A DNA stretch of 36,020 bases from an uncultured Candidatus Saccharibacteria bacterium (lineage in GTDB: Bacteria > Patescibacteriota > Minisyncoccia > Phycocordibacterales > UBA5272), in assembly GCA_964538815.1 (NCBI GenBank), contig CAZIHL010000004.1, positions 3,122 through 39,141 on the forward strand. Direction: 5' to 3'. Below the pieces are notes generated by a model, which searched no databases, was not told the DNA's origin, and saw only the letters and a program-made list of their open reading frames with translations. The translations under genes were made by a program, and so were the position numbers. Of this stretch, positions 10,353-34,148 are shown one piece after another (within the stretch, counting starts at the first letter, position 1; each line of letters opens with the position of its first letter).

Positions 10353-11633
10353 CTATCTACTATCAATCTCAGCTGTCCAACTAGGCTCATAATTTCTAAG
10401 AGCATTAATTACAGCTTTTAATAACCAAAATGGAGCTACTATAGCATATATAATAAAAAACCAGATAATACTCAAATCAAATTTCATTTTTCCGTGTAAT
10501 ATTCTATGTCCCATATATAATGAAAAAAATACAGAAGCATATATAAAAATAGAAATAAACATAATAGCAGAAGTGTTTATAAAAAATGGATCCATATTAA
10601 ATTTATAATTTTTAAAATTAAAACCTATAGCTGACAATATTAAAGATTTATTATTTAAATAATTAATTAAGTTAAAAATTACAAAACAAAAAAGGAATAA
10701 AACAGATATTACTGACACGAAACCAGAAGGTAAAGTTATAAAGCCAACATTTCCATATTTTTTCTTAAAAAACAAATGTTTATAATCCAAAGCATTTCTT
10801 ATAAATCCATATATCCATCTCGATCTTTGTTTGTATAAAGCTTTTACAGTTTTTGGGGTATTAGTAAAAACATACGCGTCAGGAGCGTGATCTATTTTCA
10901 TGTGATTATGTTGCATACGTAATGCAATTTCTTGATCTTCTGTTGTGTGAGCATGTCTATACGGACCTATTTTATCAAAAACTTCTTTCCTAAAAATTGA
11001 AAATGGGCCAGGGGTAACATGTATTGCATTTACAAAACTAAGCATTTTTTTAATATATATTTGAAGCTCATAGTCAGCTTTTTGGGCTCTTTGTATAATA
11101 TTATTTTCAGTATTAGAAATAATAGTGGGAGCTACAGCCATAATAGTTGTATCTTCTATAAAATAACTCATTATTCTATTTAATGCTTCAGTATCAACCA
11201 TAGAGTCAGAGTCTAGACACCCCAAAAATGGAGTGGTTGTGTGTTCTAATCCTAGATTTTGTGCTGTGTATTTTCCTCCATTTGGTTTTGTAAATATTTT
11301 TATTTGTGAATGTCCCTCATATCTTTTCATTACTTCCCAAGTCTTACCATTATCAGTACTTCCATCATCTACTAAAATTAAAAATAATTTATTTTTTGGA
11401 TAATTTAATTTCAAAAGTGATTCAACAGTTTTAGATACATTTTCTCCTTCATTATAAGCCGGTATTGTTATGGTTACTCCAGGGTAATCCTCATCTTTTT
11501 CAAAAAGTTTAATTGCTTTTCTTCTTATTTTTAAATTTTTATAATTTTCTAAAAATATAATTAAAAAGTATATTTGTACATATAAAGACAAAAAACTGAA
11601 GCAGTAAAATATAATTTCAAATATTTTTTGCAT
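10353..11633 (-). CDS. Processive family-2 glycosyltransferase (PgaC/NodC/cellulose-synthase-like)
   Basis: N-terminal TM, VDDGSTD, DSDS, the QRSRW (QxxRW) motif, and C-terminal multi-TM region. Confidence 0.85.
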   Translation of the reverse strand: MQKIFEIIFYCFSFLSLYVQIYFLIIFLENYKNLKIRRKAIKLFEKDEDYPGVTITIPAYNEGENVSKTVESLLKLNYPKNKLFLILVDDGSTDNGKTWEVMKRYEGHSQIKIFTKPNGGKYTAQNLGLEHTTTPFLGCLDSDSMVDTEALNRIMSYFIEDTTIMAVAPTIISNTENNIIQRAQKADYELQIYIKKMLSFVNAIHVTPGPFSIFRKEVFDKIGPYRHAHTTEDQEIALRMQHNHMKIDHAPDAYVFTNTPKTVKALYKQRSRWIYGFIRNALDYKHLFFKKKYGNVGFITLPSGFVSVISVLFLFCFVIFNLINYLNNKSLILSAIGFNFKNYKFNMDPFFINTSAIMFISIFIYASVFFSLYMGHRILHGKMKFDLSIIWFFIIYAIVAPFWLLKAVINALRNYEPSWTAEIDSR

Positions 11634-11737: not shown

Positions 11738-12538
11738 ATGGAAAATATTGATATTAATATTGAAAATAAAGGACATTCACATCCAATCACTATTTTAATA
11801 GACAAGATAATAAATATTTTTACCAAAATGGGTTTTGATGTTGCAGACGGGAGAGAGCTCGAAAGAGAATGGTTTAATTTTGACGCACTCAATGTTCCTA
11901 AAGATCATCCATCTCGCGATATGCAAGATACATTTTTCTTAAAATTGAAAGAGAATGATATGACTGGTAAAGCAGTTTTAAGAACTCATACATCAAGTGT
12001 GCAGATTAGATATATGACAGAAAAGATGCAAGAGATTAAAGATGAAAAATTAAAAGAAGATGATACTTTTCCAATTGCAATAATTTGTCCTGGGAAGGTG
12101 TATAGAAATGAAGCAACAGATGCAACTCATGAAGCACAATTTCATCAAGTTGAAGGACTGCTTGTGGGTGAAAATATTTCTATGGCCAATTTAAAAGCGG
12201 TACTTGAAAAATTTTTCTCAGAATTCTTTTTCAAAAATATTGATATCTTATTCCGATCATCATACTTTCCTTTTGTTGAGCCGGGTCTTGAAGTTGCAAT
12301 GAAATGTTTTAAATGTGATGGAAAAGGTTGTAATATTTGTAAAAATACAGGATATATTGAGATAATGGGAGCAGGAATGGTGCATCCAAAAGTTTTAGAA
12401 AATTGTGGGATAGATTCACGCAAATATTCTGGTTTTGCTTTTGGTTGTGGAATAGATAGGCTTGCAATGCTCAAATATGGTCTAGACGATATTCGTTTAC
12501 TCTACAATGGAGATTTACGAGTTATAAATCAGTTTTAA
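11738..12538 (+). CDS. pheS: Phenylalanine--tRNA ligase alpha subunit (short, lacks the N-terminal coiled coil)
   Basis: HPITILIDKI, DHPSRDMQDTFF, LRTHTSSVQIR, class II motifs and the CxxC..CxxC knuckle (KCFKCDGKGCNICKNTGYIEIMGAGMVHP). Confidence 0.95.
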   Translation: MENIDINIENKGHSHPITILIDKIINIFTKMGFDVADGRELEREWFNFDALNVPKDHPSRDMQDTFFLKLKENDMTGKAVLRTHTSSVQIRYMTEKMQEIKDEKLKEDDTFPIAIICPGKVYRNEATDATHEAQFHQVEGLLVGENISMANLKAVLEKFFSEFFFKNIDILFRSSYFPFVEPGLEVAMKCFKCDGKGCNICKNTGYIEIMGAGMVHPKVLENCGIDSRKYSGFAFGCGIDRLAMLKYGLDDIRLLYNGDLRVINQF

Positions 12539-12653: not shown

Positions 12654-15149
12654 ATGAAATATTTACACAGCTGGTTACAAGAATATGTTGAAGACAAAAT
12701 TCCAAAAGGAGAGGACTTTGTAAAAGGTGTTTCAACTGATGCTTTTGAAGTGGAAGAATATTTGGAAATAGAAAATAAAATAAATAAAGAAAAAACAGAC
12801 TGGGTTTACGATTTAAACGTTTTACCAAATCGTAGCCATGACGCACTTTCACATTATTATATGGCGAAAGAAATTGCTACTATTTTTAATTTAAAATTAA
12901 AAGATTTAAATTTATTGAGTAGTGAATGGAAAAAAGATTTTAAAATTAAAAAAAATAATGAGGATTTTATAAAAATAAGTGATACAAAATCTTGCAGTAG
13001 ATTTATGGGTGTAAAAGTGAATGGGGTAGCCGTGAAAGAAAGTCCAGAATTTATAAAATACCGCTTAGAAGCAATAGGACAAAAAAGTATAAATAATATT
13101 GTAGATATTACAAATTACATACAATTTTCTTTTAATAAACCAATGCATGCGTACGATGGTGATTTAGTCTCAGGATTCTTAGAAGCAAGATTGGCAAGAC
13201 CGGCAGAACCAATAGATTTGTTAGAACATAAAGCAAATATTAGAGGAGGATTAGAAGTAAACAAAAGTGAAACTAAATTATTGGATGATAAAACTCTCGT
13301 AATCGCTGATGAGAAAAATGTTTTAGCGCTTGCGGGGATAAAAGGCGGTAAATTTTCTGGTATTACCGAGAATACAAAAAATATAATAGTAGAAAGTGCA
13401 AATTTTAATTCAAATTTAATAAGAAAGACTTCTCAAAAGTATAATTTAAAAACAGATTCTAGTAAAAGATTTGAAAATGGTATAGCTGATGATCTAGTAG
13501 AAATTGGACTGATTGAAACTTTAAAACTTTTAAAAGATTTTGCTGATGCTGGTAATATTGAGATAGGCGAAATAGTAGATAATTTTCCAAATGAGAAATT
13601 AAGCGAGTGGAAATATAAAGTATCTGTTTCTATGTCAGAAATAAATAAAGTTTTAGGAACTAATTTAAATAAAGACCAAGTAGAAAATATTTTTGAAAGA
13701 TTTGGATTTAAATATAAATATATTTCTACAAAAGAAAATATTGAAAATTTAATAAAAGAAGTAATTGGAAAACCATATAAAAACCCAAGTAGCATGAGAG
13801 CTGACGCACCGAACGCTTTTTCATGCTCTTCTTTAATTTCATATTTATATGAAGGAGTGTATATGCCATCTATATCGATAGATAAATATTTGTATACAAA
13901 AGATAAAAGTATAGAAAAAGACAATTTAAAATTTGGTGATTTGGTATTTTCGACTGGTGATGGAAAAGTTTATCTTGAGGGAGTTGAGTATAAAAGAGGT
14001 GAGAAGGTGGAAGGTGGAGTCGATCATCTTGGTATTTATGTAGGCGATGGAAAAATTTTACATTCTTCAAGATATTTAGAAAAGGGTACAGAGATAGAAT
14101 CATTTGAAGATTTTATAGAGAAAAAGAATGGAGAAGGTGAAAGAAAAATTGTAGGATATGGAAGAGTCTTAGAAAGTCTTGATGAAGAGAGATTTGTAGT
14201 AGAAATCCCAGCTGAAAGATTGGATTTAAGAATAAAAGAAGATATTATTGAAGAAGTTGGCAGAATATACGGATTAAATAATATTAAAAGCATATTACCA
14301 ATAATAAATAAAAAACCAAGCCAGAATAAAGATTTAATAGAAGAATATATTATTAAAAATATTTTATTAGAAAACGGATTTAATGAGGTAATGAATTATT
14401 CATTACGAAATAAGGGAGATATACAAATAATAAAATCTGTAGCTCAAGATAAAAATTATTTAAGAAATAATCTTTCAGACGGAATTCAAGAAACCATACA
14501 AAAAAATATTTTCAATATGCCACTTTTAAATATTAATGAAATTAAAGTATTTGAATTTGGTAATTGTTTTAAATTAAATGAAAATGGAGAAGAGATTGAA
14601 TGGAGAAGTTTATGTATTGGTATAGATGATGGAAAGAAAAATAAAAATTATACGGATTTAAAAAATAAAATATTATCAGAAATAAAAGAAAAGTTAGTAT
14701 TAGAAAGTATAGATTTTATAGAACATAAAAACGAAAAACAAAAAGAAAATAGATTTGAAATCAATCTTACAAAATTGTTAAATCAAACTAGGAAATCTAT
14801 TTTGAAAACAGATGATTTTATTTTTCCAATAAGGATCGATAGTATTGATTTTAAATATAAATCTTTTGCGTCAACCCCTTTTATAGTCCGCGATATTGCT
14901 TGTTGGGTAAATGGAAGCACAAATGAAGAAGATATAGAAAAAATAATCAGAGAAAATATTTCACCACTTTGTATAAAATTAAATTTGTTTGATAAATTTG
15001 AAAAAGAAATAGATGGAGTTAAAAAGAAATCTTTTGCATTTAGACTTATTTATCAGGATAAAGAAAGAACATTAACTGACGAAGAGGTAAATATTGAAGC
15101 AGATAGGATTTATAAGGCTTTGGAAGAGAGAGGTTATGAAATAAGGTAA
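12654..15149 (+). CDS. pheT: Phenylalanine--tRNA ligase beta subunit with an NlpC/P60-like insertion
   Basis: B3_4 motifs (INNIVDITNYIQFSFNKPMHAYD), the B5 start (VSMSEINKVLGTNL) and the B5 end (IPAERLDLRIKEDIIEEVGRIYGL), plus a C-terminal FDX-ACB-like domain. The ~155-aa insert contains NAFSCSS...HLGIYVGDGKILHSS. Confidence 0.9.
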   Translation: MKYLHSWLQEYVEDKIPKGEDFVKGVSTDAFEVEEYLEIENKINKEKTDWVYDLNVLPNRSHDALSHYYMAKEIATIFNLKLKDLNLLSSEWKKDFKIKKNNEDFIKISDTKSCSRFMGVKVNGVAVKESPEFIKYRLEAIGQKSINNIVDITNYIQFSFNKPMHAYDGDLVSGFLEARLARPAEPIDLLEHKANIRGGLEVNKSETKLLDDKTLVIADEKNVLALAGIKGGKFSGITENTKNIIVESANFNSNLIRKTSQKYNLKTDSSKRFENGIADDLVEIGLIETLKLLKDFADAGNIEIGEIVDNFPNEKLSEWKYKVSVSMSEINKVLGTNLNKDQVENIFERFGFKYKYISTKENIENLIKEVIGKPYKNPSSMRADAPNAFSCSSLISYLYEGVYMPSISIDKYLYTKDKSIEKDNLKFGDLVFSTGDGKVYLEGVEYKRGEKVEGGVDHLGIYVGDGKILHSSRYLEKGTEIESFEDFIEKKNGEGERKIVGYGRVLESLDEERFVVEIPAERLDLRIKEDIIEEVGRIYGLNNIKSILPIINKKPSQNKDLIEEYIIKNILLENGFNEVMNYSLRNKGDIQIIKSVAQDKNYLRNNLSDGIQETIQKNIFNMPLLNINEIKVFEFGNCFKLNENGEEIEWRSLCIGIDDGKKNKNYTDLKNKILSEIKEKLVLESIDFIEHKNEKQKENRFEINLTKLLNQTRKSILKTDDFIFPIRIDSIDFKYKSFASTPFIVRDIACWVNGSTNEEDIEKIIRENISPLCIKLNLFDKFEKEIDGVKKKSFAFRLIYQDKERTLTDEEVNIEADRIYKALEERGYEIR

Positions 15150-15241: not shown

Positions 15242-16234
15242 ATGTCAGAACAAATTAAAAAAGGGGTCAGTCCAAATTTTTTCTTCTTATCACTGGGAGT
15301 TATGGTAACACTTATTACTAGTGTTATAGCAGGTTTGTCATTATTTTTTGAAACTCTGTCTCATAAAATGCCTGATGTACTAAACTCTTATTATGAGTAT
15401 GGATATAGTTCTTATACATATGAAAGTATGAGAACTATGATAGCTATTCTTTTAATTTTCTTTCCAATATTTTTAATACTTTCATATTTTTGGTGGAAAT
15501 ACATTAAAAAAGGTTTTGAAAGTAAAAATGAAAAGTTATTTAAATGGATAATGTATATAATTTTATTTTTAGCTTCTCTTGTTATTGTTATTGATCTTGT
15601 AATTTTAGTAAATTATTTTGTGGCAGGAGAAATTACAAACAGATTTATTTATAAAGTATTAGGTACAGCTTTAATAGCTGGAATGATATGGGTATACTAC
15701 TATTTATCTTTAAAAGATTTTAATATAAGCAAATCAAAAAATATAATCGTAAAAAGAATTTTATCAAATATATCAATTATCATGTTTATTTCTCTTATAA
15801 TATTTGGATTTATGGTTATGGGCAGTCCTAAAATGCAAAGAGCTTGGAGGTTAGACGAAAGAAGAGAAAGCGATCTTCAGTCTATACAATGGCAAATTGT
15901 AAATTATTGGCAGCAAAGAGGGAAAATGCCTATTAGTTTAAATGATCTAAAAGATCCTATAAGTGGAAATTATACACCTCAAGATCCAGAATTTCAACAA
16001 GGTAAAATTTATGAGTATATTTTTAAAGAGAATACATCATTTATTCTTTGTGCTACTTTTTCTGAAGTTTCACAGCAAGGATTAATAGAAAATAATAATT
16101 CAGCAGTGATTGATAATGTAAAAAGTACATCAAATTATATATCTGAAGGAAGCAATTCTTGGAATCATGGTAAAGGTAGAGTTTGTTTTGATAGAACAAT
16201 CGATCCAAAAATTTACAAACCAAATAATCCGTAA
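15242..16234 (+). CDS. Polytopic membrane protein with a C-terminal pseudopilin (GspG/T2SS-G)-like globular domain
   Basis: About 5-6 TM helices, then SDLQSIQWQIVNYWQQRGKMPISLNDLKDP...YTPQDPEFQQGKIYEYIF. This resembles the pilin/pseudopilin head motif (Y...G.yP.sL..L...P.DP....Y.Y). No class III prepilin signal. Confidence 0.5.
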   Translation: MSEQIKKGVSPNFFFLSLGVMVTLITSVIAGLSLFFETLSHKMPDVLNSYYEYGYSSYTYESMRTMIAILLIFFPIFLILSYFWWKYIKKGFESKNEKLFKWIMYIILFLASLVIVIDLVILVNYFVAGEITNRFIYKVLGTALIAGMIWVYYYLSLKDFNISKSKNIIVKRILSNISIIMFISLIIFGFMVMGSPKMQRAWRLDERRESDLQSIQWQIVNYWQQRGKMPISLNDLKDPISGNYTPQDPEFQQGKIYEYIFKENTSFILCATFSEVSQQGLIENNNSAVIDNVKSTSNYISEGSNSWNHGKGRVCFDRTIDPKIYKPNNP

Positions 16235-16255: not shown

Positions 16256-17383
16256 ATGGTTAAGTTCTTATATAAGAAAATAATAAAACCGATACTTTTT
16301 TTGTTTCCAGCAGATTATATACATATTCTTTTTTTGAAAATAGGATCTTTCTTAGGGACGAGAAATATTTATAAGAGATTAGTAAATTACTTATTTTATT
16401 TTGAGAATAAAAATATTTCACAAAATATATTAGGTATAAATTTTAAAAATCCTATAGGGCTTGCTGCAGGATTTGACTATGACGCTGATCTTGTTAATAT
16501 ACTTTGTGATGTTGGATTTGGTTTTCATACTATCGGCACGGTTACTAATATGTATTATAAAGGTAATACGTATCCAATGTTGGGCAGATTACCAAAATCA
16601 AAAGCACTTTTAGTAAATAAAGGGTTTAAAAGTAATGGTATAGATAGTATAATTAAAAAAGGTGTAAATTTTAAAAAAACTATACCTTTGGGTATAAGTT
16701 TAGGAGTTACAAATAAAATATATGAAAATGAGGCTTCTATGTTAGAAGATATTTATGAAGATTTTTTAAAAGCAAATAATACTAATTATTTTGATTATTT
16801 TGAATTAAATATTTCTTGCCCAAATCTTACACATATTCCAGAAGATTTTGAGAAATTTGACACACCAGAAGGATTAAAAAAAGTATTAAAAAAAATAAGC
16901 ACTATCAATATAATTTATCCAATTTTTATAAAAATGCATTGTGAAAAGAGTGTAGAGCAAACTATAACGTTGTGTGAAATAGCTAAAGAATTTAATTTCA
17001 TAAAAGGTTTTATTTTTTCAAATCTTGTAAAAAATAGAGATAATATATCTTTAAATAAAGAAGAATTGAAAAAGTTTGAAAATAAGAAAGGTAATTTTTC
17101 AGGTAAGCCAACAGAAAGTCTTTCTAATAATCTAATAAGTGAAGTATATAAAAAATATAAAGACGAGAACAGATTTATTATTATTGGTTGTGGTGGAGTA
17201 TTTGAAGGGAAAGATGCTTATGAAAAAATAAAAAGAGGGGCTAGCTTGATACAGATGATAACAGGTATGATTTATGAGGGCCCAAGCCAAATAGGGAATA
17301 TTAATAAAGAACTTTCAAAACTCATTAAAAAAGATGGTTATCAAAATATAAAAGAAGTAATAGGTATAAATCATAAACAATAA
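16256..17383 (+). CDS. pyrD: Dihydroorotate dehydrogenase-family protein (PyrD-like)
   Basis: FKNPIGLAAGFDYDADL, NISCPN and IIGCGGV...GASLIQMITGMIYEGP are collinear with E. coli PyrD, including the N-terminal extension. Confidence 0.75.
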   Translation: MVKFLYKKIIKPILFLFPADYIHILFLKIGSFLGTRNIYKRLVNYLFYFENKNISQNILGINFKNPIGLAAGFDYDADLVNILCDVGFGFHTIGTVTNMYYKGNTYPMLGRLPKSKALLVNKGFKSNGIDSIIKKGVNFKKTIPLGISLGVTNKIYENEASMLEDIYEDFLKANNTNYFDYFELNISCPNLTHIPEDFEKFDTPEGLKKVLKKISTINIIYPIFIKMHCEKSVEQTITLCEIAKEFNFIKGFIFSNLVKNRDNISLNKEELKKFENKKGNFSGKPTESLSNNLISEVYKKYKDENRFIIIGCGGVFEGKDAYEKIKRGASLIQMITGMIYEGPSQIGNINKELSKLIKKDGYQNIKEVIGINHKQ

Positions 17384-17734: not shown

Positions 17735-19906
17735 ATGGCAAAAGAAACTAAAAAATCATCATACGGTGCTGAGTCTATTCAAGTTTTAGAAGGTCTTGAA
17801 CCAGTCCGTAAAAGACCAGGAATGTATATTGGATCAACTGGTCCTGATGGATTACATCATTTAATATGGGAAATTTTTGACAACTCTCGTGACGAAGCCA
17901 TGAACGGATATGCGAATAGGATAGAGGTGGCAATTTTACCAAACAATATTATTCGTGTAGTTGATAATGGTCGTGGTATTCCAACTGATATTCATCCCAA
18001 GACAAAAGTTTCAGCACTTGAAACAATTATGACAACACTTCATGCTGGTGGAAAATTTAACAGTGACGGCTATTCTGTATCAGGAGGACTTCATGGAGTG
18101 GGGGCATCTGTTGTGAATGCACTTTCTATATTAACAAAAGTAGAAGTTCATAGAGATGGTAAAATTTTCATACAAGAATATTCAAAAGGTATTGCAAAGG
18201 CCAAAGTAAAAGAAATTGGGAAGACAAAATTTAATGGAACAATAGTTACTTTTAAACCAGATATTGAAATATTTAAGGAAGGTGTGGAATATGAATGGAC
18301 ACGTATAGTGTCTCATTTGCGTCAGCAAGCCTATCTTGTAAAAGGACTAGAGATAGATATCTTAGATTTAAGAAAAAGATACCAAGATCTCTCTGATGAA
18401 AAATCTTCCTTTAATTTTGTGAAAGAAATAGAAGGGGAAAGCTATATTAAAGATTTAGATTATAATAAATTTTCTGGATATAAATCATTTTCATTTTTCT
18501 TTGAAGGTGGATTAAAGAGTCTTGTCTCTCATTATAATTTTAATGATAAACCAATACATAAAAATATCTTTTATGTAGAGAAAAAAATAGATGAGCAAGA
18601 AAATAATGTAGGGGTAGAAATAGCATTACAATATGTAGATGATTATCCTACAAAAATAGTAGCTTTTGCAAACAATATTCCTAATGCAGAAGGAGGAACT
18701 CATGTTTCTGGGTTTAAGACTACACTAACAAGACTTATAAATTCCTATGCTCGTAAAAATAATATTTTAAAAGAAAAAGATGAAAATCTTACAGGAGACG
18801 ATGTTCTCGAAGGATTAACAGCCGTAATTTCTGTAAAGCTTCATGAAATACAATTTGAAGGACAAACTAAAGCAAAGCTTGGATCTATGGAAGCGCAAAC
18901 TGCAGTATCTAGTGTATTCTCACAAGCTTTCTCTGACTTTTTAGAAGAACATCCAGATGATGCAAAAGAAATTATAGGAAAAGGTTTATTAGCTTTGCGT
19001 GCTAGAAAAGCTGCAAAAGCTGCAAAAGATTCTATATTAAGAAAATCTGCATTAGAAGGAATGACTCTTCCTGGAAAGCTTGCCGATTGCCAAAGTAATA
19101 GTGCAGAAGAATCTGAATTATTTATAGTAGAGGGAGACTCCGCTGGAGGATCAGCTAAAATGGGTCGTGATAGAAAGACTCAAGCCATTCTTCCATTAAG
19201 AGGTAAGATTTTAAATGTAGAAAGAGCGAGACTGGATAAAATGCTTGGATCTGAACAGGTTAAAAATTTAGTTTTGGCTATGGGTGCAGCAATAGGAGAT
19301 ACTTTTGATATTAAGAAAATGAGATATCATAAAATAATTATTGCTACAGATGCCGATGTTGATGGAGAACATATACGAACACTGTTATTAACATTTTTCT
19401 TTAGATATTATAAGGAAGTTATCGATAGTGGATTTATTTATATTGCTCAACCACCACTTTATAAAATAATGCAGGGTAAAAAAGTTGATTATGCTTATTC
19501 TGATGTTGAAAAATTTTCTATAGTAGGTGATGTAAATCTTGAAGAGGTAGCAGAAGATGATGATTCTGTAGAAATAAATGAAAATGAAGAACTTTCAGAA
19601 GAATTAAAAGATGCAGGATTTGAAGATACTAATAAAAAATCAAAAGGCAAGAAAGGTAAAGAAAATAAAATTGAAGAAAAGAAAAGTTCTAAAATTAGGA
19701 TACAAAGATATAAAGGTCTTGGAGAAATGAATGCTGAAGAATTATGGGAAACAACAATGGATCCTAAAAATAGAGTTCTTAAACAAGTTTCAGCAAAAGA
19801 TGCAGAAGAAGCAGATAAAATATTTGATATGCTTATGGGTAGCGAAGTAGGGCCAAGAAAAAGCTTTATTCAAACTTACGCGAAGGAGGCGGATATTGAT
19901 TATTAA
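17735..19906 (+). CDS. gyrB: DNA gyrase subunit B
   Basis: GHKL ATPase motifs (GLHHLIWEIFDNSRDE, DNGRGIP), Toprim (EGDSAGG, DADVDGEHI) and the C-terminal YKGLGEMNAEELWETTMDP. Confidence 0.95.
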   Translation: MAKETKKSSYGAESIQVLEGLEPVRKRPGMYIGSTGPDGLHHLIWEIFDNSRDEAMNGYANRIEVAILPNNIIRVVDNGRGIPTDIHPKTKVSALETIMTTLHAGGKFNSDGYSVSGGLHGVGASVVNALSILTKVEVHRDGKIFIQEYSKGIAKAKVKEIGKTKFNGTIVTFKPDIEIFKEGVEYEWTRIVSHLRQQAYLVKGLEIDILDLRKRYQDLSDEKSSFNFVKEIEGESYIKDLDYNKFSGYKSFSFFFEGGLKSLVSHYNFNDKPIHKNIFYVEKKIDEQENNVGVEIALQYVDDYPTKIVAFANNIPNAEGGTHVSGFKTTLTRLINSYARKNNILKEKDENLTGDDVLEGLTAVISVKLHEIQFEGQTKAKLGSMEAQTAVSSVFSQAFSDFLEEHPDDAKEIIGKGLLALRARKAAKAAKDSILRKSALEGMTLPGKLADCQSNSAEESELFIVEGDSAGGSAKMGRDRKTQAILPLRGKILNVERARLDKMLGSEQVKNLVLAMGAAIGDTFDIKKMRYHKIIIATDADVDGEHIRTLLLTFFFRYYKEVIDSGFIYIAQPPLYKIMQGKKVDYAYSDVEKFSIVGDVNLEEVAEDDDSVEINENEELSEELKDAGFEDTNKKSKGKKGKENKIEEKKSSKIRIQRYKGLGEMNAEELWETTMDPKNRVLKQVSAKDAEEADKIFDMLMGSEVGPRKSFIQTYAKEADIDY

Positions 19907-34071: not shown

Positions 34072-34148
34072 GCGCGATTAGCTCAGCTGGCTAGAGCATT
34101 CGACTGATACTCGAAAGGTCCTTGGTTCAAGTCCAAGATCGCGCACCA
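34072..34148 (+). tRNA. tRNA-Ile (anticodon GAT), CCA encoded
   Basis: GCGCGAT/ATCGCGC acceptor, GCTC/GAGC D-stem, TTCGA-CTGATAC-TCGAA anticodon arm, CTTGG-TTCAAGT-CCAAG T-arm, A-CCA. Confidence 0.95.

Follow-up and report, generated by a model that had tools for sequence, protein, structure and literature searches.

Bacterial phenylalanyl-tRNA synthetase (PheRS) β subunits, such as those of Staphylococcus haemolyticus (2rhs_B), Escherichia coli (3pco_B), and Thermus thermophilus (1pys), are the closest described counterparts of the gene analyzed here: pheT, the β-subunit gene in a 36,020-nucleotide stretch of contig CAZIHL010000004.1 from an uncultured Candidatus Saccharibacteria bacterium (assembly GCA_964538815.1). 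We refer to this whole stretch as the window. The window PheT shares with these proteins collinear B1, B3/4, B5, B6/7, and B8 domains, the editing and B5 acidic motifs, and a pheS gene immediately upstream. It differs from them in that a predicted catalytic domain of 155 residues, belonging to the NlpC/P60 family, is nested in the B5 hairpin, that B2 is missing, and that the protein scores below the cutoff of the model TIGR00472.

Among NlpC/P60 enzymes, those of the YkfC type are likewise cytoplasmic cysteine peptidases with a Cys-His-His triad, an oxyanion-type Tyr, and an accessory domain packed on the catalytic domain (PMC2954226; PMC9928106). YkfC His291 and His303 are 12 residues apart (PMC2954226), the same spacing as that of His458 and His470 in the window domain. 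In YkfC, whose subfamily is specific for a free N-terminal L-Ala, an SH3b domain supplies Tyr118, whereas the window domain has no SH3b, has B5 in the accessory position, and is nested in an aminoacyl-tRNA synthetase. It also has Ser390 and Ser406 for Asp237 and Arg255, no Asp256, and a longer loop before the catalytic Cys with new invariant residues. The best sequence and structural match to the insert is the catalytic domain of Acd24020, an autolysin of C. difficile (7cfl). Unlike the window domain, this hydrolase is secreted, acts on the cell wall, and has the canonical FDCSG and PR motifs, and it has neither the four-residue loop insertion nor the 13–14-residue hairpin between GDLVF and the catalytic His that the window domain carries.

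Precedents for a domain that belongs to a synthetase in most lineages and is a separate gene in others are AlaX, YbaK, and CtdA – the last a B3/B4-derived canavanyl-tRNA deacylase (PMC12449066). These are established aminoacyl-tRNA deacylases on known editing folds, whereas the combined B5 and NlpC/P60 unit (B5::NlpC/P60) is papain-like and known here from sequence. Where that unit is a separate gene, its partner protein has the tRNA-synt_2d and FDX-ACB architecture of mitochondrial monomeric PheRS, which is a chimera of the α catalytic module and B8 (PMC3275996). Unlike the mitochondrial enzyme, the partner is bacterial, lies in the ancestral pheS–pheT locus, and is accompanied by a retained B5::NlpC/P60 gene that mitochondria lack.

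The NlpC/P60 insert of PheT

Alignment of the window PheT to 2rhs_B pairs residues 48–353 with chain residues 160–443 and residues 509–831 with chain residues 446–800. From these flanking alignments we place the insert at residues 354–508 (feature coordinates are given in Table 1), where ~155 residues stand in place of a 2-residue turn of the B5 β-hairpin. The Pfam model NLPC_P60 (PF00877) matches residues 385–473 with 36.7 bits, above its gathering cutoff of 23, and scores 42.2 bits (E 8.3e-11) when the insert is searched alone. When the insert was used in phmmer and profile searches of PDB sequences, NlpC/P60 enzymes were the only matches, the best being 7cfl_A (E 1.3e-8 with phmmer and 3.1e-15 with the profile). 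Pfam LRAT matches were weak, covered the His motif only, and were not used as support for an acyltransferase function.

Structure prediction agrees with the sequence matches. An AlphaFold model of residues 316–545 has a predicted local distance difference test score (pLDDT) of 91.3 and a predicted template modelling score (pTM) of 0.87. The best 35 of 35 Foldseek matches of this model in the PDB are NlpC/P60 proteins, with 7cfl_A matching at a target TM-score of 0.84, a root-mean-square deviation of 2.9 Å, probability 1.0, and 26% identity. The insert is thus predicted to adopt the papain-like α+β NlpC/P60 (MEROPS C40) fold. In a full-length model (pLDDT 86, pTM 0.65), pLDDT is 92–95 at both insert junctions and about 90–97 within the insert; the junction values suggest that the NlpC/P60 domain is rigidly mounted on B5.

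An earlier reading of the window from its letters alone (the sequence-only reading) had proposed that an otherwise collinear PheT carries an NlpC/P60 Cys-His-His domain in B5, and the Pfam match above cutoff, the 2rhs_B alignment, and the AlphaFold and Foldseek results bear this out. Every peptide that it quoted is present in the 831-residue open reading frame, and the codons that it gave for Cys391, His458, and His470 are right. Its insert length of ~155 residues holds, though the boundaries that it drew (13722–14190) are off by up to 13 nucleotides from the aligned ones (13713–14177). It also described the NlpC/P60 motif pattern as the family's usual one. The domain assignment stands, but the pattern is not fully canonical: FSCSS replaces FDCSG, the 'GG' is missing, and a four-residue insertion precedes the Cys. 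Finally, it had called for a survey of related PheT proteins, which shows that the insert is not peculiar to the window genome. Among the 120 best PheT homologues, 119 carry PF00877 (42–100% identity, 776–839 amino acids). The source assemblies of these 119 are from NCBI, JGI, ENA, and Logan, and their labels include Pacebacteria, Paceibacterota, Nomurabacteria, and Parcubacteria, among similar names.

When 1.84 billion representatives were searched exhaustively with a profile, 152 clusters (50% identity) were obtained at E ≤ 1e-30, mostly PheT proteins of ~770–840 amino acids with the module at about residues 295–510. In species-representative genomes we found 36 loci with a fused PheT and 11 with a free-standing gene. 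In comparisons between the window PheT and relatives of less than 55% identity, identity is 50% for the insert, 36% for B6/7, 50% for B8, and 59% for B3/4, the most conserved PheT domain. The insert is conserved to the same degree as core PheRS domains, and the B5-nested NlpC/P60 domain is a lineage-wide, selected trait of a large Patescibacteria group.

Some members of the profile census depart from the usual length. Most of the 390–670-amino acid matches begin mid-domain and are truncated gene calls, with real extra architecture in two cluster representatives only (P0160 and P0162; handles in P denote proteins and those in L denote loci). Proteins of 524–543 amino acids with the order B5::NlpC, B6/7, B8 are either a real architecture or truncated calls. 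One protein of 1183 amino acids (P0158) is an unrelated giant with nine or ten tandem NlpC/P60 repeats and faint phage-tail-like matches that all fall short of an individual domain match.

We also considered an origin of the insert as an assembly chimera, a frameshift fusion, an intein, or a mobile insertion, and this can be excluded with near certainty. The same in-frame architecture occurs in more than 100 independent assemblies from NCBI, JGI, ENA, and Logan. The insert does not stand out in base composition, a half of B5 lies on either side of the domain even where the gene is free-standing, and no intein junction residues were seen by eye.

The insert is not accompanied by any decay of the canonical editing domain. 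The 119 relatives conserve the B3/4 motifs HAYD, GIKGG, ESANF, and TDSSKRFE to at least 95%, and the insert is mildly acidic (isoelectric point 5.5). Together with the high conservation of B3/4, these observations indicate that the NlpC/P60 domain is no replacement for editing in fused proteins. By Foldseek, the insert fold is unrelated to known editing folds.

The active site and its substrate pocket

Cys391, His458, His470, and Tyr375 line up with catalytic residues of solved NlpC/P60 enzymes, and Tyr375, like the others, is invariant. The first three, which the sequence-only reading had named as a candidate triad, are invariant in all 119 full-length relatives (42–100% identity). In a module alignment of 30 rows – the window module and 29 free-standing proteins – the Cys and the first His are present in every row, and the third residue is His in 27 and Gln or Asp in 3. 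The third residue of a papain-like triad is known to tolerate H, Q, or D (PMC2954226). In the predicted structure, the 2.9 Å superposition on 7cfl alone implies that the triad residues are juxtaposed in three dimensions.

This conservation bears on whether the domain could be a non-catalytic module with a structural, regulatory, or RNA- or protein-binding role, for example one that offsets the missing B2 and α-subunit coiled-coil, its triad being conserved incidentally. We regard this as very improbable. Known inactive members of the family have lost the triad, whereas here the Cys and first His do not vary among about 150 sequences, with identities as low as ~40%, and the third residue is only ever H, Q, or D. 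The window PheRS does lack both B2 and the α N-terminal coiled-coil, the domain is packed rigidly on B5, and inactive NlpC/P60 domains do exist (e.g., RipD, an NCBIfam model name). The domain is, however, acidic, and it has been kept as a separate protein where PheT appears to have been lost.

The γ-D-Glu S1 site of NlpC/P60 peptidases has been defined, in YkfC numbering, by Tyr226, Trp228, Asp237, Ser239, the conserved Arg255, and a small residue at position 257 (Xu et al. 2010, PMC2954226). In profile alignments to five solved enzymes, Tyr375 (Tyr226), Met381 (hydrophobic 228), and Ser392 (Ser239) keep their S1 positions. The position of Asp237 is occupied by Ser390 (FSCSS versus FDCSG in the five solved structures) and that of Arg255 by Ser406 (MPS versus I/L-P-R). 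Both serines are invariant in the module alignment and at least 90% conserved in the full-length set. No equivalent of Asp256 is present, as Ile407 follows Ser406, and no SH3b domain was found in the Pfam scan, placing the protein outside the YkfC subfamily.

The loop before the catalytic Cys has family-specific features of its own. Asp384, Ala385, and Pro386 are invariant, and Arg382 is invariant in the module alignment and at least 90% conserved in the full-length set. The pLDDT of this loop is 69 in the isolated-module model and about 90 in the full-length model. Together with the serine pair, these features mark a distinct NlpC/P60 subfamily in which the S1 pocket is remodelled. They lend no support to the specificity of canonical DL-endopeptidases, and thioacyl-enzyme chemistry on Cys391 is expected to be unchanged. 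A β-hairpin of ~13–20 residues separates the GDLVFS motif from the catalytic His. It corresponds to a gap in canonical NlpC/P60 domains (as compared with 7cfl) and is also missing in the free-standing proteins P0028–P0030, so it is dispensable for the fold.

These features weigh on the possibility that the domain is a canonical peptidoglycan DL-endopeptidase that cleaves γ-D-Glu–diamino-acid bonds, as YkfC and MepS do, in recycled murein peptides in the cytoplasm or in the wall after release. We consider this quite unlikely. The enzymes closest to it in sequence and structure are all peptidoglycan DL-endopeptidases, and at two loci described below a free-standing module lies beside S11, MraY, and MurG genes. 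The sequence-only reading had held that NlpC/P60 domains are normally extracytoplasmic, but this does not apply to YkfC-type enzymes, which act on murein peptides in the cytoplasm, in reduced genomes included (PMC2954226; PMC9928106). Against a DL-endopeptidase, however, Asp237 and Arg255 (YkfC numbering) are among the most conserved γ-D-Glu-site residues and are replaced family-wide by Ser390 and Ser406, and neither SH3b nor an Asp256 equivalent is found. Nor is there a signal peptide, lipobox, or wall-binding domain: the NlpC/P60 domain is internal to a cytoplasmic PheT, and the free-standing forms begin at the B5 strand. With neither a signal peptide nor a membrane anchor, action on the intact wall is implausible. 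The moonlighting cell-wall activity that had been suggested from the sequence is weakened, in its canonical form, by the loss of the Asp/Arg pair for γ-D-Glu and by the missing export signal.

Free-standing modules, single-chain PheRS, and a C39_2-like partner

The nearest relatives of the insert alone are not PheT proteins. They are proteins of 193–234 amino acids, encoded by a free-standing gene for ~200 residues, with both B5 halves around an NlpC/P60 core (49–53 bits on Pfam NLPC_P60). In a neighbour-joining tree of 148 modules, the free-standing ones form a single clade. B5::NlpC/P60 behaves as one evolutionary module, which sequence comparison places within PheT in most lineages and in a separate gene in one clade with a single-chain PheRS.

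In 10 of the 11 species loci and in metagenomic loci L001–L007, the free-standing module is directly beside a gene for a 375–400-amino acid protein with tRNA-synt_2d and FDX-ACB domains (PheS::FDX-ACB). These proteins score 240 bits on pheS_mito, whose cutoff is 258, and also fall just under the cutoff of the 'SrmL mystery ligase' model. Single-chain PheRS genes were seen in L001 and L053 (Table 1), with equivalents in L005–7, L044–L050, L052, and L054, in a Zambryskibacteria-type clade. A family 2 glycosyltransferase (GT2) gene and gyrB are neighbours common to the single-chain loci and the window, with gyrB downstream of the free-standing module in L001–L007. These shared neighbours suggest that the single-chain PheRS arose in place from an ancestral pheS–pheT locus, and its origin was thus probably independent of the mitochondrial form.

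In the loci examined of the single-chain clade, which was surveyed on contigs, the B5::NlpC/P60 module is the sole other piece of PheT, and no B3/4 was found. A second, different tRNA-directed activity would fit retention of the module beside a PheRS without B3/4 in these loci. The B5 motif D-x5-D-x2-EE, the Mg2+ site shared with the α subunit in UniProt annotation of PheT, reads DDEE in 111 of the 119 fused proteins and is degenerate in the free-standing ones. That the triad is kept while the B5 acidic motif decays argues for selection on the hydrolase and not on the canonical α–β contact.

Two related, higher-G+C organisms carry a free-standing module away from any PheRS gene (L051 and L056). 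In both, the module follows genes for an S11 D-Ala-D-Ala carboxypeptidase, MraY, and a CAP-domain protein. MurG, ScpA, and ScpB genes lie further upstream in L056, while VanW-like and DUF218-like open reading frames lie downstream in L051. The L051 identities were assigned by eye from translations and those of L056 are precomputed Pfam matches.

The association with PheRS raises the main alternative, a tRNA-directed enzyme. Cys391 would form a thioester from the ester of charged or mischarged tRNA(Phe), or from an aminoacyl-adenylate, followed by hydrolysis (a second proofreading) or transfer. In the single-chain clade the free-standing protein would work in trans, by analogy with AlaX, YbaK, and CtdA. 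The domain is embedded in the PheRS of more than 100 lineages, and a separate gene is kept exactly where B1–B4 and B6/7 appear to be lost; it lies beside PheS::FDX-ACB in 10 of 11 species loci and is co-directional and abutting in L053 and L054. Some members of the NlpC/P60-LRAT superfamily are ester-to-thioester acyltransferases. Remodelling has taken the S1 site away from γ-D-Glu recognition, PheS has no tRNA-binding coiled-coil, and B5 is a helix-turn-helix 'DNA binding-like' domain and hence a potential nucleic-acid binder (PMC3275996).

Even so, we think a tRNA-directed enzyme possible but rather doubtful. Editing by such an enzyme would be redundant in the fused forms, all of which have intact B3/4 motifs, and both the acidity of the insert (isoelectric point 5.5) and the loss of the acidic motif from free-standing B5 count against it. 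The module lies far from PheRS genes in L051 and L056, its persistent partner (below) is peptidase-like and not tRNA-related, and inherited gene order can account for the adjacency to pheS. A papain-like fold acting on aminoacyl-tRNA would also be without known precedent. Of the editing-linked hydrolysis suggested by the sequence-only reading, the tRNA-directed possibility is what is left: as a replacement for B3/4 in the fused proteins it does not hold, given an intact B3/4, an acidic insert, and a module that survives detached and travels with a cysteine peptidase. We regard as unlikely the more specific proposal of a second, papain-like PheRS site on the aminoacyl ester of tRNA(Phe) – for proofreading or as a Phe-transferase, and as a trans factor in the single-chain clade – with the peptidase-like partner, and possibly GT2, acting downstream.

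The partner is a cysteine peptidase-like protein of the Peptidase_C39_2 type, which we identified from locus scans with a locally built hidden Markov model (HMM) and from Pfam. It is linked to the module in three ways. In P0160 and P0162 (the latter encoded at L056:6001–7194) the module is fused to a Peptidase_C39_2 domain. In L005–7, L053, and L054, a separate C39_2-like gene for ~190 amino acids adjoins or overlaps the gene of the free-standing module. Downstream of fused pheT, on the same strand, a C39_2-like gene is found in 21 of 36 loci and is directly adjacent in about half of those. By these patterns the C39_2 link appears to persist in three genomic contexts, whereas the PheRS link can break.

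The C39_2-like partners score 49–55 bits in Pfam against a cutoff of 24, with an invariant Cys and a His that is at least 85% conserved. They begin at a conserved VPYYSQ motif; they therefore have no signal peptide and are expected to be cytosolic. No solved relative of the C39_2-like protein was found by sequence. In L013 the C39 HMM also matched weakly downstream of pheT, but the protein is a dihydroorotate dehydrogenase, and the match was discarded as a false positive.

As the most likely reading, we propose that the NlpC/P60 domain is an active, autonomous cysteine amidase or esterase of the cytoplasm. It would be mounted on B5 and would act on a small peptide-like substrate together with the C39_2-like enzyme. 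We give this proposal about an even chance of being correct. Cys391 would serve as the nucleophile, forming a thioacyl-enzyme intermediate, with His458 as the general base, His470 as the orienting residue, and Tyr375 as an oxyanion-type residue. The domain would have its own enzymatic job on a small peptide-like or acyl-amide substrate, in a step probably shared with the accompanying Peptidase_C39_2-like cysteine peptidase. B5 would be its scaffold and anchor, and B3/4 editing would not be replaced. The substrate would be other than a canonically bound L-Ala-γ-D-Glu-diamino-acid stem peptide, because Ser/Ser stands in for the Asp/Arg pair of S1 and the site is lined by a new loop that holds conserved Arg382 and invariant Asp384.

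Several observations weigh against this proposal. Of the 11 species loci with a free-standing module, 10 have it beside the PheRS gene, and its B5 is still recognisable, which could reflect a PheRS- or tRNA-linked role instead of inherited gene order. To our knowledge, no general peptidase is among the catalytic domains added to aminoacyl-tRNA synthetases so far, which are editing hydrolases or aminoacyl-tRNA-dependent transferases. L051 and L056 share synteny, so that their peptidoglycan-gene neighbourhood counts in effect as a single evolutionary event. Finally, no C39_2-like open reading frame was found in the 36-kb window, nor in the sequence available for its closest subclade (L008–L014, L017, and L040).

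The window locus and the place of the module in Patescibacteria

The window PheRS is reduced at both subunits (Table 1): PheS is short, at 266 amino acids, and is missing its N-terminal coiled-coil, and PheT has no B2 (11738–12538 and 12654–12983). The pheS product matches Pfam tRNA-synt_2d from profile position 9 (E 2.2e-95) and scores 293.9 bits on TIGR00468, above cutoff. In T. thermophilus the N-terminal PheS coiled-coil aids tRNA binding (PMC3275996). The pheT product matches TIGR00472 (pheT_bact) from profile position 137 at E 1.8e-102, with 344 bits against an equivalog cutoff of 402.65, and a B2 (tRNA_bind) match was not found by Pfam in the 831 residues. B5, B6/7, and B8 are in canonical order, with B5 interrupted by the insert, and pheS adjoins. 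The low TIGR00472 score and the loss of B2 look like lineage-specific reduction plus the insert, and are no argument against orthology.

Table 1. Coordinates of features in the window and of selected genes in related loci (L numbers)
Feature	Position	Strand	Basis or remark
GT2 membrane glycosyltransferase, divergent from pheS	10353–11633	-	Pfam Glycos_transf_2; weaker Chitin_synth_2 and Glyco_transf_21 matches
pheS, PheRS α subunit, minimal 266-amino acid form	11738–12538	+	Pfam tRNA-synt_2d, TIGR00468
pheT, PheRS β subunit, 831 amino acids, with nested NlpC/P60	12654–15149	+	Pfam, NCBIfam, 2rhs_B alignment
B3/4 editing domain, residues 114–297	12993–13544	+	Pfam B3_4, E 2.6e-47
B5 N-terminal half, residues ~320–353, last strand FKYKYI	13611–13712	+	Aligned to 2rhs_B through chain residue 443; model strands E6-11, E38-43
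NlpC/P60 (C40) insert, residues 354–508, in the B5 hairpin	13713–14177	+	Pfam PF00877, Foldseek, 2rhs_B alignment
Pre-Cys loop Y375-KNPSSMRADA-P386: oxyanion-type Tyr375, 4-residue insertion NPSS, Arg382, Asp384/Ala385/Pro386	13776–13811	+	Invariant columns; gap versus 7cfl
Catalytic Cys391 within S390-C391-S392-S393	13821–13832 (Cys codon 13824–13826)	+	FsCss aligned to FDCSG of 5 solved structures
P405-S406, Ser at the YkfC Arg255 position of the 'PR' motif	13866–13871	+	Profile alignments to 7cfl, 8v3w, 3i86, 3pbi, 4fdy
β-hairpin between GDLVFS and the catalytic His, residues ~433–454	13950–14015	+	Gap in 7cfl
His458, catalytic histidine, motif VDHLGIY	14025–14027	+	Aligned to His of solved enzymes
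His470, third triad residue	14061–14063	+	Aligned to solved enzymes
B5 C-terminal half, residues 509–542, acidic motif D524-x5-D530-x2-E533-E534	14178–14279	+	Pfam B5 at residues 507–540
B6/B7 catalytic-like module	14283–14858	+	Pfam tRNA_synthFbeta, residues 544–664
B8 / FDX-ACB anticodon-binding domain	14874–15146	+	Pfam FDX-ACB, residues 741–831, E 2.5e-21
DUF5671 multi-pass membrane protein	15242–16234	+	
Dihydroorotate dehydrogenase-like protein	16256–17383	+	
gyrB	17735–19906	+	
tRNA-Ile, UAU anticodon	27930–28004	+	
tRNA-Ile (GAU)	34072–34148		
C39_2-like genes	L025:7467–8036, L031:7458–8030, L053:6602–7174, L005:8608–9219		Recurrent operon or fusion partner
Single-chain PheRS gene	L001:6821–7963	-	
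Single-chain PheRS gene	L053:4884–6029	+	
Free-standing modules away from any PheRS gene	L051:5893–6657, L056:6001–7194		

A multi-pass GT2 gene adjoins pheS in most related loci (L001–L054) in three different arrangements: divergent, as in the window; GT2, pheS, and pheT in succession, sometimes followed by C39; and, in the single-chain clade, pheS::FDX-ACB followed by GT2 after a gap of ~30 base pairs. This adjacency may reflect functional linkage or merely conserved gene order, and the membership of GT2 in the system is uncertain. Downstream of the window pheT are genes for a DUF5671 multi-pass membrane protein and a dihydroorotate dehydrogenase-like protein, followed by gyrB. An Rfam scan of the window returned tRNAs only, with neither a leader nor a riboswitch near pheST. 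One of these tRNAs is a tRNA-Ile with a UAU anticodon, which the window encodes besides tRNA-Ile(GAU). Such a tRNA is uncommon in bacteria, where AUA is usually read by a lysidine-modified CAU tRNA.

Several homologues of the window PheT (P0051, P0109, P0117, P0042, P0067, and P0079) carry the public names 'C40 family peptidase' or 'phenylalanine--tRNA ligase beta subunit-related protein'. This misnaming arises because the protein scores under the TIGR00472 cutoff, and records under either name appear to be the organism's PheT. Such misannotation could distort metabolic reconstructions and marker-gene estimates of completeness.

The sequence-only reading knew of no NlpC/P60 domain in an aminoacyl-tRNA synthetase, and we likewise found no prior description in the searchable literature. 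No paper joined NlpC/P60 with phenylalanyl-tRNA synthetase, and broader results were unrelated by their titles and abstracts, as were those on monomeric bacterial PheRS and on Peptidase_C39_2. The combination of NlpC/P60 and PheT is thus apparently undescribed, though databases annotate the domains. A synthetase with an added catalytic domain is a known kind of protein; the fold is unprecedented for that role.

A papain-like hydrolase that is conserved, apparently active, and nested in PheRS makes a new combination, and the enzyme that carries it is essential in a very large group of bacteria that is poorly understood. The single-chain form of PheRS had earlier been described only for mitochondria (PMC3275996), and the clade that carries it offers a natural dissection of the enzyme. 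If the function of the nested domain were resolved, translation in Patescibacteria would be shown to connect in a new way with the metabolism of peptides or of the cell envelope, or else a proofreading chemistry of a new kind would emerge.

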